Assembly (NCBI GenBank): GCA_003228115.1
Contig: QEVV01000006.1
Span: 25,094 to 89,093 of the forward strand
Source: Chloroflexota bacterium
Lineage (GTDB): Bacteria > Chloroflexota > Dehalococcoidia > Lucifugimonadales > SAR202-VII-2
Direction of reading: 5' to 3'
DNA: 64,000 nt
Part shown: positions 2,612-58,030 of the stretch, piece by piece
How positions within the stretch are numbered: position 1 is the stretch's first letter
Layout: every line of letters begins with the position of its first letter
Made by a program: the position numbers and the translations under genes
Notes under the pieces: model-generated
The model's input: only the letters and a program-made list of their open reading frames with translations
Databases searched by the model: none
What the model was told of the DNA's origin: nothing

Positions 2612-2761
2612 ATGCAATTTTGCCCGGCTTTGAACATTGGAGTAGACTGTCCGCGACCTTGATGTAGGATCGCACAAACCATTGCTGCTGCATGCCCAAA
2701 CCTCATGTAGGCCGCCTGTGAGAGCGTTCCCGTTGAGGAATTTGAGCACGAGGAGTGCTGC

Positions 2762-3055
2762 ATGAGGATCTACGTAGGAAATCTCGCATACGGCATCACG
2801 GACCAGGAGCTCGAGGAGGCTTTCGCCCCCTTCGGCCAAGTGGAGTCTGCCCAAGTTGTGACCGACCGCTACTCTGGAAGGTCAAAGGGCTTCGGGTTCG
2901 TCGAGATGGCGGACAAGGAGCAGGCTGAGGCGGCCATTGCTTCGCTCAACGCCAAGGAGTTGAGCGGACGGGCGCTGACTGTTAATGAGGCTCGTCCCCG
3001 GCCGGAGCGGTCCTTCGGCGGCGGCGGTGGTGGTGGCGGTGACTCTCGCTGGTAG
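2762..3055 (+). CDS. RRM-type RNA-binding protein with a Gly-rich tail (copy 1 of 3)
   Basis: MRIYVGNL (RNP-2), KGFGFVEM (RNP-1) and a C-terminal GGGGGGGG tail. The GAGGAG RBS sits in the loop of a small hairpin (AGCAC GAGGA GTGCT). Confidence 0.9.
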   Translation: MRIYVGNLAYGITDQELEEAFAPFGQVESAQVVTDRYSGRSKGFGFVEMADKEQAEAAIASLNAKELSGRALTVNEARPRPERSFGGGGGGGGDSRW

Positions 3056-49071: not shown

Positions 49072-49106
49072 ACAAAAAGAGAGGGGCCCTGATAGGGCCC
49101 CTCTCT
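49072..49106 (-). terminator. Rho-independent terminator of RRM gene 2
   Basis: 12-bp stem AGAGAGGGGCCC / GGGCCCCTCTCT (49078-49106), followed on the minus strand by TTTTT. Confidence 0.8.
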
Positions 49107-49129: not shown

Positions 49130-49447
49130 CTACCAGCGCCGCTCGTTGCGCGGGCCGCCTCCTCCTCCGCCAGAGTCGTTGCGAGGTCCGCTGAAGCTCC
49201 GCTGTTCACGAGGCTTGGCCTCGTTCACTGTAAGCGTGCGGCCAGCAAGGTCCTGGCCGTTCAAGCCCGTAATGGCGTTCTGAGCCTCCGTCAGGTCAGG
49301 CATCTCCACAAACCCGAATCCCTTGGACCGGCCGGAGTCACGGTCAGTGACTACCTGGGCAGACTCAACAGACCCATAAGCCAGGAAGGCTCGCTCTAGG
49401 TCAGAGTCTCGGGACTCGTACGACAGGTTCCCCACATAGATACGCAT
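49130..49447 (-). CDS. RRM-type RNA-binding protein (copy 2)
   Basis: MRIYVGNLSY and KGFGFVEM motifs with a Gly-rich tail. ATG 49447 follows AAGGAG. The upstream part of the track ORF is the leader read as protein. Confidence 0.9.
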   Translation of the reverse strand: MRIYVGNLSYESRDSDLERAFLAYGSVESAQVVTDRDSGRSKGFGFVEMPDLTEAQNAITGLNGQDLAGRTLTVNEAKPREQRSFSGPRNDSGGGGGGPRNERRW

Positions 49448-49580
49448 ATGGCACTCCTTGCCAAAAGATACCGAGCCTTCCTGTGCAAGGACGCCTGTGC
49501 CGGAGAGCTTAGCGGGGCTAAAACGCAGGGCAGGAACGAACAGTACAAGAGAAGTCTTCGGTCGCGACAGTTTACCACAG
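49448..49580 (-). promoter_or_regulatory. Conserved 5' leader (~110 nt) plus extended -10 promoter (TGGTAAACT) of RRM gene 2
   Basis: 49448-49552 is near-identical to 57897-58002. The element TGTGGTAAACT at 49569-49579 matches TGTGGTATACT upstream of copy 3. Confidence 0.55.
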
Positions 49581-49834
49581 CCCCTTAGCAAAATACTCCT
49601 AATCAATAGGGCGTGAACAGGGAGGGTAGGGAGTAGAAAAGAAGTGGCAAACGCCGAAGGTTCCACGAGGAAAAACATTGCCTCCGTCGAACAGCGTCGG
49701 GGTCGACACACATTGCTATCTGTAACCTGCGTGTGCTGTTCCGGTCCGCCCGCTTCGAAAGAACGGGAGACCGCTCAGTAAACGCAGGTTACGTCCCGCC
49801 AAACCTAGTGGGAAGGTGTCCGAATGGCCCCGGG

Positions 49835-50812
49835 TCAATCAGCGACGGCGGCAATCGTCTGCCTGGTTTCCTGCGGCAGGCGGTGCCGAAGGGCAACCTT
49901 GACGCCGGAGGCTTTCGTTTGGAGAGCCCGCTTCAAGTCCTGCGCATCCAGGGTGTACACGTCGCGGATGAGTCGCACTTCCTGCAAGGCGCAGATCACG
50001 ACCCAACTCAGGTCGAAATGCCACCAACGAAGTCCGTGGCGGGCCGATCGGGGTGACGCATGATGGGTATTGTGCCCCCCCTCACCAAGCGCAAGCAGGC
50101 CGACAAGCCAGTGGTTCCGGCTTTGATCCTTCGGAGAGAATGCACGGCTGCCAAAAACATGGCATACAGAATTAACAGACCAAGTCGCATGATGCGTTAG
50201 GGAAATCCGCACCAAACCACCCCATAGGAGACCGCTCCAGCCACCGATGGCAAAGGGTATGACGAGTGCAGCCAAGAACCATACAGGCGCCAACCGGTTG
50301 ATGAACACAACGTCCGGGTCGTTCAAGAGGTCGCGGGCCCAGCGGCCTTCGTCAGCGGCCTGGCCACGCTGAAAGAGCCATCCAAGGTGGGCGTGAGCAA
50401 ATCCCACAATCGCATTGCGGTTCAGATTGGGACTGTGGGGGTCCCCCTCCCTGTCAGAGCGCGCGTGATGCAAGCGATGATTGGCGGCCCAAGAAATAGG
50501 CCTGCCCTGTATCGACATGGTCCCCAGTATCAACAAGGCAATCTTTACGGGGCGTCTGGCATTCAAACTCCCGTGGGTTAAGAGGCGGTGATAGCCGATG
50601 GTCACTCCAAGGCCAACCAATAGGTAAATCGTGGTTAGCAGGGCAATGTCCTGCCAGCCGACCATCCGGTTCCACAACGCGAAAATCGCGTACCCCACGG
50701 CTACCAGTGGTCCTGCGACCACAAGGCCCATAACGGGCTTCCGAAGCGCCCTGCCCGCCGACCAACCTCCATCCATACTTTGCCTATCTTTCATACTTTG
50801 CCTATCTTTCAT
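49835..50812 (-). CDS. Membrane fatty-acid (acyl-CoA/acyl-lipid delta-9-type) desaturase
   Basis: His boxes HRLLTH, HRLHH and HNTHH. The start is ambiguous among ATG 50812, 50794 and 50776 because of an 18-bp tandem duplication. The track start is GTG 50857. Confidence 0.85.
   Translation of the reverse strand: MKDRQSMKDRQSMDGGWSAGRALRKPVMGLVVAGPLVAVGYAIFALWNRMVGWQDIALLTTIYLLVGLGVTIGYHRLLTHGSLNARRPVKIALLILGTMSIQGRPISWAANHRLHHARSDREGDPHSPNLNRNAIVGFAHAHLGWLFQRGQAADEGRWARDLLNDPDVVFINRLAPVWFLAALVIPFAIGGWSGLLWGGLVRISLTHHATWSVNSVCHVFGSRAFSPKDQSRNHWLVGLLALGEGGHNTHHASPRSARHGLRWWHFDLSWVVICALQEVRLIRDVYTLDAQDLKRALQTKASGVKVALRHRLPQETRQTIAAVAD
50774..50809. repeat. Perfect 18-bp tandem duplication inside the desaturase 5' end
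   Basis: CATACTTTGCCTATCTTT occurs twice (50774-50791 and 50792-50809). It encodes MKDRQS-MKDRQS on the minus strand. Confidence 0.9.
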
Positions 50813-50981
50813 TTGGACCAATCTCTTCTCCCCATATAATCGGCACCCCCTGGACACGAGTCCCAGGGGGTGTTTTCTCAGTTCATACCTATAGGATCAC
50901 AAGCCAACCATGCCCCATCCGACCACGGATCAGTGCCCAGCACGGATAATGAACCAGCCTCACAGGTGTACGGTGGCATTC

Positions 50982-51567: not shown

Positions 51568-52944
51568 ATGACGTCAGACCCCGCTGTCCGCTACTGGCTC
51601 AAGTGCATAAACGATGACTGTGGAGCAACCTATGCACCAGAGAAGTTCATGGACACCTGCCCGCGATGCGGTGGCCTCTTTCTTCTCGAGAGAGATGAGG
51701 ACCTCATTGATAACGAGGTGGGCATCGGCCAGCAGGCTCGGGACTACTTCGACAACATCCGCTTTGGGCGGGGCCGTGACACCTACCCTTACGGAAGTGG
51801 CGTGTTCATGTGGCTTGCTCACATACTGCCAGGCTTTCCGGAAGAGTCGGTCATCTCTCTTCAAGAGGGCTTCACAGACCTGTTCAAAACGCCTGAATGG
51901 CTACAGCGGAGGGTTGGATTAAAGAACCTGTTTATCAAGATGGAGGGCCAGCTTCCGTCCCATAGCTTCAAGGACCGGGGGCTTTCCGTAGCGGTATCTG
52001 AGGCTCACCGGCTTCAGAAGACCTACCCGGAGCAAAACATCCGCTTCGTTGCCTGCGCCAGCACTGGGGATACTTCGGCTTCCGCTGCGATCTACAGCGC
52101 CTACGAAGAGAGCCTCCACTGTTTGGTGCTCCTTCCCGATGAACGGGTCTCGGAGGAGCAGCTGTACCAGGCCATGGCTCACGGGGCGACCGTCCTTTCC
52201 ATTAAGCATCCCGATGGGTTCGATGCCTGCATGAACCTTGTTGAGGAATTTTGTTCCCGGCACTCGGAAATCGTGTTGGTGAACTCCAAGAACGCCTTCC
52301 GGATCGTGGGGCAAGAGACAATAGCTTTAGAGATATGCCAGGACCTGCGGTGGAAGGCGCCCGATTGGATTTCCATTCCTTGCGGCAATGGGGGCAACCT
52401 GACGGCCCTCCTGACTTCCCTTCGGCGAATGGAGCGGCGGGGTCTGATCGACAAAGTGCCAGGAATCATCGTGGCGCAGGCGAAGAGTGCCAACACCCTG
52501 GTACGCTGGGGACGTAGCGGTTTCAAAGACTACGCACCGGGATCTTCCCGTGGTGAAACTGTTGCCACCGCCATGGACATCCAGAACCCTGTTAGCTTTC
52601 CACGAATCAAGAAGCTGGTCCCTGGTTTCAAGATGGCCTTTTACGATGTATCCGAGGAAGACATCCAGCAAACTCGGGCGATATTCATGAGTGCCGGAGC
52701 CAATATCTGCCCGCAGTCAGCGGTTGCTTTGGACGCCGTGCTCCAAGCCCGCCGGGACGGCGTTGTAAAGGAAGACGACGTAGTCACTTCCATCAGCACA
52801 GCTAGCGGCGTCAAGTTCTTTCGTTCTGGCCTAGCCTACGTTAGTAAGGAGGGCAACCCCCACGCCAACCCGCCCAGAGTGGTTAACGGTTCGGTGGAGG
52901 ACATTGAGAACGCTGTGCGCCATCTGGCCGGCGTCAACTTTTAG
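51568..52944 (+). CDS. thrC: Threonine synthase (long form with an N-terminal zinc ribbon)
   Basis: SHSFKDRG (PLP Lys), an N-terminal C..C...C..C cysteine pattern, and GNGGN. Confidence 0.9.
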   Translation: MTSDPAVRYWLKCINDDCGATYAPEKFMDTCPRCGGLFLLERDEDLIDNEVGIGQQARDYFDNIRFGRGRDTYPYGSGVFMWLAHILPGFPEESVISLQEGFTDLFKTPEWLQRRVGLKNLFIKMEGQLPSHSFKDRGLSVAVSEAHRLQKTYPEQNIRFVACASTGDTSASAAIYSAYEESLHCLVLLPDERVSEEQLYQAMAHGATVLSIKHPDGFDACMNLVEEFCSRHSEIVLVNSKNAFRIVGQETIALEICQDLRWKAPDWISIPCGNGGNLTALLTSLRRMERRGLIDKVPGIIVAQAKSANTLVRWGRSGFKDYAPGSSRGETVATAMDIQNPVSFPRIKKLVPGFKMAFYDVSEEDIQQTRAIFMSAGANICPQSAVALDAVLQARRDGVVKEDDVVTSISTASGVKFFRSGLAYVSKEGNPHANPPRVVNGSVEDIENAVRHLAGVNF

Positions 52945-57551: not shown

Positions 57552-57590
57552 CAAACAAGAAGAGGGGGCCCTGGTTAGGGCCCCCTCTTC
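57552..57590 (-). terminator. Terminator of RRM gene 3
   Basis: 13-bp stem GAAGAGGGGGCCC / GGGCCCCCTCTTC (57559-57590). The architecture matches the 49078-49106 terminator. Confidence 0.75.
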
Positions 57591-57611: not shown

Positions 57612-57896
57612 TTACCAGCTGCGCTCGTTGCGCTGTCCGCCGCTAGCACGCTGCTCACGAGGCTTGGCCTCGTTCACGGTAAGCGTCCGTCCACCAACTT
57701 CCGTTCCATTCAGACCAGTGATGGCGTTCTGCGCCTCTGACATCTCTGGCATCTCCACGAACCCGAAGCCCTTGGATCTGCCTGAGTAACGGTCACTGAC
57801 CACCTGAGCCGACTCAACAGCTCCGAAAGCCAGGAAGGCTTTTTCCAACTCGGCGTCCTGGGTCTCGTACGAAAGGTTTCCTACATAGATACGCAT
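57612..57896 (-). CDS. RRM-type RNA-binding protein (copy 3)
   Basis: MRIYVGNLSY and KGFGFVEM motifs. ATG 57896 follows AAGGAG. Confidence 0.9.
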   Translation of the reverse strand: MRIYVGNLSYETQDAELEKAFLAFGAVESAQVVSDRYSGRSKGFGFVEMPEMSEAQNAITGLNGTEVGGRTLTVNEAKPREQRASGGQRNERSW

Positions 57897-58030
57897 ATGG
57901 CACTCCTTGCCAACAATATTCCGAGCCTTCCTGTGCAAGGGCGCCAGTGCCGGAGAGCTTAGCGGGGCTAAAACGCGGGCAGAAACGACAGTACAAGAGA
58001 GAGGTCTGCGGTTACACTAGTATACCACAC
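57897..58030 (-). promoter_or_regulatory. Conserved 5' leader plus extended -10 promoter (TGGTATACT) of RRM gene 3
   Basis: 57897-58002 aligns almost base-for-base with 49448-49552. TGTGGTATACT lies at 58019-58029. Confidence 0.55.

Follow-up and report, generated by a model that had tools for sequence, protein, structure and literature searches.

We describe here a leader of about 115 nucleotides (nt) that precedes two of the three genes for RNA recognition motif (RRM) proteins in a 64,000-nt stretch of a Chloroflexota genome (contig QEVV01000006.1, assembly GCA_003228115.1), which is called the window throughout. Among the systems described so far, Weinberg et al. (2010, PMC2864571) reported the Chlorobi-RRM RNA motif (RF01697) as a candidate cis-regulatory RNA. 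In the cspA mRNA, a thermosensor in cis works together with the CspA protein, which acts in trans (PMC9947658, PMC6386945). In cyanobacteria, the 5' untranslated region (5'-UTR) of rbpA1 governs accumulation in the cold, as reported by Ehira et al. (2003, 2005) in the account that PMC4152365 gives of them (background in PMC12232666). Compared with Csp, Hfq or ProQ, the RRM proteins of bacteria are poorly understood, and their regulation is essentially unknown outside cyanobacteria.

An earlier note on this DNA, made from its letters alone, had proposed that the leader is a cis-regulatory RNA. In our analysis the leader turned out to be conserved in 12 loci beyond the level of synonymous sites, which speaks for the proposal, but covariation was scant. 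Judging by the pattern of sequence conservation, the leader is very probably functional and acts in cis.

Two similar leaders in front of diverged RRM genes

The genes and leaders in question are the following. W2 and W3 denote the leaders of RRM copies 2 and 3, respectively, and L-numbers denote fetched loci.

2762-3055, forward strand: coding sequence of RRM copy 1, a comparator without the leader (Pfam RRM_1; exact match to NCBI PZC46333.1)
49130-49447, reverse strand: coding sequence of RRM copy 2, 105 amino acids (aa), glycine-rich tail (Pfam RRM_1, E 1.8e-20; exact match to PZC46376.1)
57612-57896, reverse strand: coding sequence of RRM copy 3, 94 aa (Pfam RRM_1, E 1.1e-21; exact match to PZC46384.1)
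49448-49562, reverse strand: leader RNA of copy 2, ~115 nt (covariance-model match 49436-49565, 128.4 bits, E 3.9e-30)
57897-58012, reverse strand: leader RNA of copy 3, ~116 nt (covariance-model match 57885-58015, 131.5 bits, E 6.5e-31)

All three proteins match Pfam RRM_1 (PF00076) with E values of 1e-20 to 1e-25 and scores of 73, 76.9 and 89.6 bits, the cut-off being 20.7, and an exact protein look-up showed their three accessions to be entries of a 'Chloroflexi bacterium' metagenome-assembled genome (MAG), on a contig of 133 kb. Copies 2 and 3 lie 8.4 kb apart on the same strand. When 49448-49552 is aligned with 57897-58002, starting about 105 nt before the ATG, 98 of the 108 alignment columns are identical (91%). 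Between the two leaders there are five substitutions and three internal indels of one base each, and a CT run is longer by 2 bases in one of them. The near identity had been noticed before with a count of two single-base indels, which has to be raised to three, and the leader of copy 2 had been located correctly except for a shift of one base, as the ATG lies at 49447 instead of 49448.

The genes themselves are far less alike. Over the 83-codon RRM domain, the coding DNA of copies 2 and 3 is 80% identical, and the third positions are 61% identical. Only 19 of the 37 four-fold sites (51%) are the same, and the Nei-Gojobori estimates are pS 0.53, dS ~0.92 and pN 0.09. The difference between the leader and the four-fold sites is significant (Fisher p ~1e-6). 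The impression by eye that the coding regions differ more than the leaders was therefore correct. The earlier note had conceded that its proposal would fall if synonymous sites were as conserved as the leaders, and they are clearly not (51% at four-fold sites versus 91%). With leaders this similar at a dS of about 0.9, a recent duplication is no explanation for the likeness.

Distribution and conservation of the leader

Homologs were sought in a collection of 5.8 billion proteins, and DNA was fetched around twelve of the closest RRM proteins; a pattern scan of metagenomes was added. The nearest RRM proteins in the collection were unnamed or from Chloroflexi and 61-87% identical, and the pattern scan yielded eight loci, four of which carry the leader. 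Altogether, the same leader was found directly 5' of an RRM gene in ten further distinct loci of uncultured Chloroflexota (L081, L083, L089/L091, L098, L099, L100, L107, L111, L118 and L119), which together with W2 and W3 gives the 12 sequences of alignment A1 and of the covariance model R1.

R1 found exactly two matches on both strands of the 64 kb, at 131.5 and 128.4 bits, and the next best hit reached 10.5 bits, which excludes chance. Because R1 was built from the same leaders, these scores measure its specificity within the searched DNA and are not an independent discovery. In the related loci, R1 gave a single match of 111-145 bits per leader-type RRM gene, ending at the ATG. RRM copy 1 has no such leader (8.3 bits, E 3.1, against 128 and 131 bits for the other two copies), and the earlier remark that its leader is different was thus right. 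No R1 match was found in 80 RRM loci of Proteobacteria, Planctomycetota, Bacteroidota and other phyla. When genomes were scanned with the protein, the RRM genes obtained were all from other phyla, at 60-68% identity, and none of them bears the leader. The other Chloroflexota RRM clades, namely L098b, L115-117, L118b and L121 (the third RRM of L098/L118; P0036 and P0019 types), are also without it, and viral contigs scanned for a 16-mer of the leader gave 35 chance matches and no leaders.

The leader of copy 2 is closer to that of L081 (identity 0.96) than to W3 (0.87), and L081 shows synteny with copy 2 over the genes for a desaturase, the RRM protein and hydantoinase B. The organism of the window was met again in JGI sample 3300036808, where L095 is its copy 3 locus, with a leader identical to W3. 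The leader loci other than L081 and L095 have unrelated gene neighbourhoods, and the encoded proteins are down to about 61% identical. The protein at L083 (P0003) is PZC46149.1 and probably belongs to the same MAG as the window, in which case this genome would carry at least three leader-bearing RRM paralogs. A related contig, L112, comes from the cold Canada Basin, namely from the co-assembly of GOLD project Ga0133547, from which MAGs of SAR202 and other Chloroflexi have been described.

The leaders have a mean identity of 0.74 over their 66 pairs. The coding DNA reaches 0.72, third positions 0.51 and four-fold sites 0.42, and in 65 of the 66 pairs third positions fall below the leader. This, in combination with the clustering of orthologs, points to purifying selection and argues against recent gene conversion. 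The invariant or nearly invariant blocks of A1 are the 5' ACCG.AGAC, GUCG..(C/U)CUG, the arms of a CUAG/UUAG hairpin, GGCA, GCGCC.UUGCA, CUCGGAAU and UUGGCAAGGAGUGCCA. Invariance among the 12 homologs extends to the 5' terminus ACCGAAGACC and to predicted loops, for example GGCUCGGAAU.

Two predicted alternative folds around the ribosome-binding site

The strands that matter for the folding of the leader are given below in the order of transcription, together with the ribosome-binding site (RBS) and its Shine-Dalgarno sequence (SD). MFE stands for minimum free energy.

49529-49553, reverse strand: pyrimidine-rich upstream strand of copy 2, ~76% C+U (RNAalifold consensus, composition, helix enumeration)
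57978-58003, reverse strand: pyrimidine-rich upstream strand of copy 3 (RNAalifold consensus, composition)
49508-49522, reverse strand: predicted hairpin P5 of copy 2, UUUAGC-CCC-GCUAAG (in every fold; -3.1 kcal/mol, z-score -2.9)
57958-57972, reverse strand: predicted hairpin P5 of copy 3 (predicted fold, consensus)
49484-49495, reverse strand: switch strand X, the putative anti-SD, of copy 2, GGCGUCCUUGCA (nearly invariant in 12 homologs)
57934-57945, reverse strand: switch strand X of copy 3, GGCGCCCUUGCA (paired with GCAAGG-A-GUGCC in the MFE fold)
49449-49464, reverse strand: RBS strand of copy 2, UUGGCAAGGAGUGCCA, with the SD AAGGAG (invariant in 12/12 homologs)
57898-57913, reverse strand: RBS strand of copy 3, also UUGGCAAGGAGUGCCA (invariant in 12/12 homologs)

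The invariant strand X, GGCG(C/U)CCUUGCA, can pair either with the RBS or with the upstream strand, which in the homologs is 65-77% pyrimidine versus 51-59% elsewhere. A need to satisfy two partners would explain why this one strand is invariant.

In the closed fold, GGCG(C/U)CCUUGC would pair with GCAAGG-A-GUGCC over 11-12 base pairs (bp) with one bulge, thus covering the whole SD, and nine of the 12 sequences allow a further pairing, that of GCAU with AUGC at the start codon. This fold is the predicted MFE structure of copy 3 and of most homologs. The X:RBS core, when closed by an artificial GAAA loop, has a predicted energy of -18.6 kcal/mol. Its central anti-SD/SD pairing, CCUUGC with GCAAGG, is possible in all 12 sequences; 11 of them can form all six pairs, and L119 has one A.G mismatch.

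The open fold is the RNAalifold consensus and the predicted MFE structure of copy 2 and L081. Here X would pair with UGYA (P2; UGUA in copy 2) and CGUU (P3) of the upstream strand, and these helices would be stacked on P4 (UGC/GCA) and P5, both of which are compatible with either fold. At the 5' end, the resulting rod is closed by P1 (CCG.AG with CU.CGG). The SD is then presented in the 5-nt loop of a separate hairpin P6, UGGCA-AGGAG-UGCCA, which on its own has -6.5 kcal/mol and a z-score of -2.2.

These folds modify the helix that the earlier note had suspected of sequestering the SD. The elements it listed, CCTTGC, the SD GCAAGGAG, GGCAC and GTGCC, are all present in the leader, and its CCUUGC:GCAAGG pairing is possible throughout, but its GGCAC:GTGCC pairing, although possible, is not the favoured register: ViennaRNA prefers to pair the GGCG located directly 5' of CCUUGC with UGCC. 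GGCA would more likely pair with UGCC to form P4, and GCAU with the start codon. Moreover, the note saw a single fold, whereas a competing and equally conserved one also exists.

Also of note is that the upstream strand of copy 2 includes UCGUUCCU, a second complement of the SD. More generally, the upstream CGUU(C/U)CU is complementary to AGGAGUG over 7 bp (A1 columns 30-36 with 114-120; 49532-49538 and 57982-57988 of the window with the respective SDs). This second potential anti-SD is kept in at least 90% of the alignment cells of the 12 homologs. A pseudoknot between UCCG(G) 5' of X and the loop CGGA was considered and rejected, as it has only 3-4 pairs and its changes are one-sided.

According to partition-function calculations, W2 and L081 are open (P 0.87-1.0), W3, L083, L089, L100, L107, L111 and L118 are closed (P 0.93-1.0), and L098, L099 and L119 are mixed. 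The probability of anti-SD:SD pairing in W3 stays between 0.93 and 0.99 at 0-37 °C, and in the closed-type homologs between 0.93 and 1.0. At 37 °C the constrained ensemble energies of the two folds are no more than 2 kcal/mol apart in five of the 12 sequences, the open-fold value of L083 being unreliable as its anchor lay on a wrong UGUA. The barriers that Findpath gives between the folds are about 20-25 kcal/mol at 37 °C, rising to 25-40 kcal/mol at 4 °C. Such high barriers make kinetic, co-transcriptional control plausible.

Covariation and thermodynamic support

In the open fold, 97.7% of the alignment cells are paired, as compared with 87% in the closed fold; the core of the latter (columns 76-84 with 111-120) is paired in 12/12 sequences at most positions. 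A compensatory change was found in only one helix, P5, where U-A is replaced by C-G in 5/12 sequences; one apical pair also shows a double-sided change. There are in addition one-sided changes that preserve pairing: opposite a G, C is replaced by U in P2, in P3 and in the anti-SD helix, and opposite a U, G is replaced by A in P3. The covariation check that the earlier note had asked for is therefore of limited help: it is answered in part by the compensatory pair in P5, but nearly all the proposed pairs are invariant. With 12 sequences and most columns invariant, its statistical power is low.

A number of observations weigh against a regulatory structure. Only one or two pairs change on both sides, and most never vary. 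Shuffle controls are barely exceeded, and the tool itself warns that this can occur without any structure. An unbiased enumeration showed many helices of 4-7 bp that are equally well kept, because the sequence itself is so conserved. Taken as a whole, the leader does not exceed shuffled sequences in stability (z-scores of +1.0 and +1.6). In the closed fold, the outer pairs are lost in three homologs, and the A.G mismatch of L119 falls within the anti-SD helix. The closed hairpin has an apical stem (AACAG/CUGUU, AACUAAG/UUUAGUU and similar) that seemed by eye to covary, but the covariation failed a test of self versus cross duplexes with shuffling, being significant only in L118 and L119, and was dropped. 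No consistent trend with temperature between 0 and 37 °C was found in the predicted equilibria of the 12 homologs: in the cold, L098 shifts towards the open fold and L099 shifts the opposite way. On this ground we rejected an equilibrium thermometer, and the simple form of the thermosensor option raised in the earlier note is not indicated. Finally, the 12 sequences are few and phylogenetically related. Hence, the structure of the leader is plausible rather than proven.

Putative promoter, terminators and absence of an upstream reading frame

The flanking transcription signals are listed below.

49569-49577, reverse strand: putative extended -10 element of copy 2, TGgTAAACT (read from sequence; predicted start ~49562)
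58019-58027, reverse strand: putative extended -10 element of copy 3, TGgTATACT (read from sequence; predicted start ~58012)
49078-49106, reverse strand: predicted intrinsic terminator of copy 2 (found by a terminator scan as a 13-bp stem with a T run 3' of it; folded)
57559-57590, reverse strand: predicted terminator hairpin of copy 3, GAAGAGGGGGCCC-UAACCA-GGGCCCCCUCUUC followed by UUGUUUG (read from sequence, folded)

TGTGGTAAACT is found at 49569-49579 and TGTGGTATACT at 58019-58029. In both window copies, TG lies one base 5' of the -10 hexamer, as in extended -10 (TGn) sigma-70 promoters, and TGnTAnnnT is found at the same place in 12/12 homologous loci. The pattern GCTAA-N5/6-TGTGGTA(A/T)ACT read in the earlier note thus stands as far as the extended -10 is concerned, but its GCTAA is not conserved in the homologs. 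No conserved -35 was found among the 12 loci, and a generic -35/-10 promoter scan gave no match at either leader, as expected for an extended -10. With a start about 7 nt 3' of the -10, the RNA would have the invariant ACCG as its very first bases. A sigma-54 promoter (GGCAC...TTGCA) was also considered, but its spacing is wrong, GG-N13-GC instead of GG-N10-GC.

Both genes end in terminators, as had been noticed before, with GC-rich hairpins at 49078-49106 and 57559-57590; that of copy 3 was missed by the simple scan as its T run is interrupted. The RRM terminators of W2, W3, L081, L083, L089, L100, L107, L111 and L118 have a common core, (A/G)GAGGGGCCC...GGGCCCCUC(U/C), with small compensatory differences. 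They are of the ordinary intrinsic type, yet unusually alike between loci.

The single-base indels between the copies shift every reading frame, which rules out a conserved upstream open reading frame (ORF), and the mechanical ORF translations over the two leaders, upstream or antisense, are unrelated.

Proposed mechanism and alternative explanations

These findings suggest the following model. An extended -10 promoter would give rise to a leader of about 115 nt, which would control glycine-rich RRM genes in a marine, uncultured lineage of Chloroflexota. It would act as a switch of three strands, in which X either closes the RBS, hiding the SD and the AUG, or is held by the upstream strand, leaving the SD exposed. 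Such gating of the RBS by alternative pairing in a functional leader has about an even chance. The conservation of the leader, its distribution and its capacity for either pairing are observed, whereas the transcription start, the folds that really form and the inputs to the switch are inferred. Of the inputs to this switch, we consider the RRM proteins themselves the most likely one, because the primary sequence is conserved almost totally, including the loops and the 5' end, because the upstream strand is pyrimidine-rich and because the paralogs have the leader in common. Pyrimidine-rich RNA suits single-strand binding by an RRM. The proteins would bind this strand when it is single-stranded, X would be freed and the RBS closed, with the result of a negative feedback common to the paralogs. 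This part of the model is a reasonable possibility that falls short of an even chance. By analogy with cspA and the rbpA1 5'-UTR, the kinetics of folding in the cold may be a second input: slow interconversion would favour the open fold formed during transcription, leading to induction in the cold. A temperature or kinetic component of this kind is compatible with feedback by the RRM proteins and is put forward more tentatively, as somewhat unlikely.

Both inputs could be joined in one independently evolved circuit, in which the open fold, formed during transcription, is trapped in the cold and translated, and the pooled RRM paralogs then bind the pyrimidine-rich strand and drive the RNA into the RBS-occluded fold. 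In this complete form the proposal is unlikely. Were it true, a single RNA would integrate temperature and the demand for RNA chaperones, an RRM counterpart of the cspA mRNA, and it would do so in Chloroflexota that are affiliated with SAR202, a lineage abundant in the deep ocean, where it would be common to at least three paralogs per genome.

Several other explanations of the conserved leader have to be weighed. It might be a pure RNA thermosensor of the cspA type, in which the open fold is trapped in the cold and relaxes to the closed one when it is warmer, with no protein input. The two exclusive folds are separated by high predicted barriers that rise as the temperature falls, the closed fold is thermodynamically favoured in eight of the 12 sequences, the 5' rod can form before the RBS is transcribed, the source habitat is cold and some of the neighbouring genes are of the cold type, and the cspA mRNA provides a precedent (PMC6386945, PMC9947658). 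The predicted equilibria, however, have no consistent temperature dependence, and for W2 and L081 the open fold is predicted at every temperature. Thermosensors usually conserve structure and not nearly every base, whereas here even the loops GGCUCGGAAU and the 5' end ACCGAAGACC are invariant, and a constant habitat of about 0 °C gives little need for a thermometer. We therefore consider a purely thermal switch improbable, and even less so favour an element that sets the half-life of the mRNA, either through P1 shielding the 5' end from RNases or through the X:RBS helix serving as a substrate of RNase III, as in the pnp and rnc leaders. The conserved 5' ACCG.AG indeed has a possible pairing partner in CU.CGG, which is conserved too, the closed helix is as long as 12-20 bp, and the rbpA1 5'-UTR of cyanobacteria affects how much transcript accumulates at low temperature (Ehira 2005, cited through PMC4152365). 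On the other side, the pairs of P1 are invariant, hence without covariation support, and the strongest invariance is over the SD and its complement, which argues for control of initiation. The two are not exclusive of each other.

Control could also be exerted on the DNA, by transcription-factor operators in the initially transcribed region. TGGCAAGGAGTGCCA is a perfect inverted repeat of the 5-N5-5 type (TGGCA-N5-TGCCA), invariant in 12/12 loci. Sato and Nakamura are said to have proposed, in 1998, that a protein binds to the 5'-UTR region of cyanobacterial rbpA1. Yet the conservation of about 115 nt goes far beyond the need of an operator, the palindrome overlaps the region of the SD and the start codon and its complement CCUUGC lies 30 nt upstream, both being features of an RNA, P5 contains a compensatory change, and no regulator gene is linked across the fetched loci, all of which makes operators very unlikely. 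The architecture of three switching strands and the very high conservation, internal loops included, would fit a small-molecule riboswitch with the 5' rod as its aptamer and the X:RBS helix as its expression platform. We give this little credence, as there is no match to an Rfam riboswitch and no multi-helix junction with covariation support, and the leader is associated exclusively with a gene for an RNA-binding protein, with no obvious metabolite logic. Least probable, to the point of being negligible, is that the leader has no function and reflects a very recent duplication or a gene conversion between paralogs. The short distance of 8.4 kb between the copies and their common strand might suggest it, but synonymous sites are near saturation (dS ~0.92) while the leaders are 91% identical, the leaders are nearer to their counterparts elsewhere (0.96 between W2 and L081; W3 the same as L095), and the leader is kept beside proteins that are only 61-70% identical and in unrelated contexts. 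Synonymous divergence and the clustering of orthologs thus refute this explanation.

Genomic neighbourhood and other features of the window

A fatty-acid desaturase gene adjoins the leader-type RRM gene in the window (49835-50857, reverse strand), in L081 (896-1819) and in L099 (2595-3473). A DEAD-box helicase gene does so in L098 (2484-3569), L118 and L119, and BipA/TypA in L118 and L119 (the helicase/BipA neighbours span 4856-8232 in L118 and 5686-9376 in L119). Desaturases, DEAD-box helicases and BipA are cold-inducible in other bacteria and form a set typical of cold acclimation. A scan with R1 showed that none of these desaturase, helicase and BipA neighbours carries the leader. L098 and L099 are on the same contig of 1.4 Mb (ERZ26166843 contig_4), where the two leader-bearing RRM genes diverge around a third one of 101 aa with a TTG start and without the leader; with the DEAD-box helicase on one side and the desaturase on the other, they form a compact RRM cluster.

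The leader of copy 1 (2640-2761, forward strand; ~113 nt) is different and ends in a hairpin, AGCAC-GAGGA-GUGCU, at 2745-2759. With -7.1 kcal/mol and a z-score of -3.4, this hairpin resembles P6 of copies 2 and 3 in that its 5-nt loop contains the SD. The -10 region of copy 1 and its first bases, TAGACTGTCCGCGACC (2643-2658), resemble TAAACTGTCGCGACC of copy 2. The leader of copy 1 may thus be a very divergent relative of the one described here. A start-codon/SD finder located the SD in only seven of the 80 RRM loci of other phyla, which are too few to compare hairpins with the SD in the loop.

Between the desaturase gene and RRM copy 2, a long hairpin, GUAACCUGCGU...ACGCAGGUUAC with an inner stem, occupies 49722-49792 (reverse strand). 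It belongs to about 200 nt of intergenic DNA that are entirely missing from the syntenic L081. The region 49600-49835, inside which it lies, folds better than shuffled sequences (z-score -2.2), and the hairpin element is present in a single copy in the window. It could be the terminator of the desaturase gene or a small inserted element. Further away, at 51568-52944 (forward strand), there is a gene of the threonine-synthase-like (PALP) type, the named homologs of which, beyond a few close relatives, are 55-69% identical and belong to Patescibacteria, also called the Candidate Phyla Radiation (CPR). This pattern may be due to horizontal transfer or to sparse naming in the databases.

Comparison with known regulatory leaders

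A search against Rfam 15 gave no family match in the window at the gathering threshold, nor at E<=10 on 49400-49720. RF01697 in particular (gathering score 45 bits) has no match in the window or in L081, L083, L089, L098, L100, L111, L118 and L119. As a positive control, the Chlorobiaceae locus L055 was matched at 82.5 bits (2899-2971, ending about 30 nt before the RRM ATG), so that the search itself works. Full-text searches of the literature found no description of the leader.

Both the Chlorobi-RRM motif and the leader of Chloroflexota are 5'-UTR elements located directly upstream of genes for single-domain RRM proteins, and each is restricted to one phylum. They have no similarity in sequence or model. 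The former has 73 nt and consists of two hairpins followed by a UCUCUUUUUAU tract that ends about 30 nt before the ATG, whereas the latter is about 115 nt long and spans the SD and its complement. The architecture of two hairpins and a pyrimidine tract is thus not found here, the number of helices, the length and the relation to the SD all being different.

The 5'-UTR of E. coli cspA (RF01766) is similarly a long conserved leader of a gene for a small, abundant, cold-associated RNA chaperone. The cspA mRNA has alternative conformations that are not equally translatable, and CspA acts on the mRNA that encodes it; for the Chloroflexota leader, two exclusive folds are predicted. There is no match to RF01766 in Rfam, the protein has an RRM in place of a cold-shock domain, and the predicted response to temperature is inconsistent. 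The rbp genes of cyanobacteria encode proteins of the same glycine-rich single-RRM family, many of them are cold-induced, and their paralogs have UTR elements in common; they belong to another phylum, and the likeness is one of description.

Autoregulatory leaders, such as those of ribosomal-protein genes, thrS and pnp, follow the logic proposed here, in which a product binds its own leader and so occludes the RBS or entraps the ribosome-binding region, and they too show a strongly conserved primary sequence that travels with the gene. The known ones often mimic the main RNA target of the protein, while binding of the RRM protein to the present leader is only a proposal. In the ROSE and fourU thermometers the SD is paired inside a hairpin of the 5'-UTR, as is predicted here, but these elements are turned on by heat and have short, weak helices and little sequence conservation. 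The Chloroflexota leader, on the contrary, would have a strong helix (-18.6 kcal/mol for the core), its sequence is invariant and induction in the cold would be expected. Nor does it resemble an RBS-occluding thermometer in other respects, as its predicted SD helix is not marginally stable, the probability of anti-SD:SD pairing in the closed-type homologs is 0.93-1.0 at 0-37 °C, and it matches no thermometer in Rfam. An assignment to a riboswitch class finds no match in Rfam either, and only P5 has a compensatory pair.

Gating of the RBS by alternative pairing and autoregulation by RNA-binding proteins are both well known, and no new principle is involved. The leader does offer a testable handle on the levels of RNA chaperones in uncultured marine Chloroflexota, including lineages of the Arctic Ocean, and R1 can be used to annotate it in MAGs of this phylum. 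In summary, it belongs to none of the curated families with which it was compared and is best described as a lineage-specific regulatory 5' leader of a gene for an RNA-binding protein. As such, it would be the second phylum-specific leader of this kind after Chlorobi-RRM, suggesting a pattern of RRM genes with dedicated 5' regulatory RNAs.

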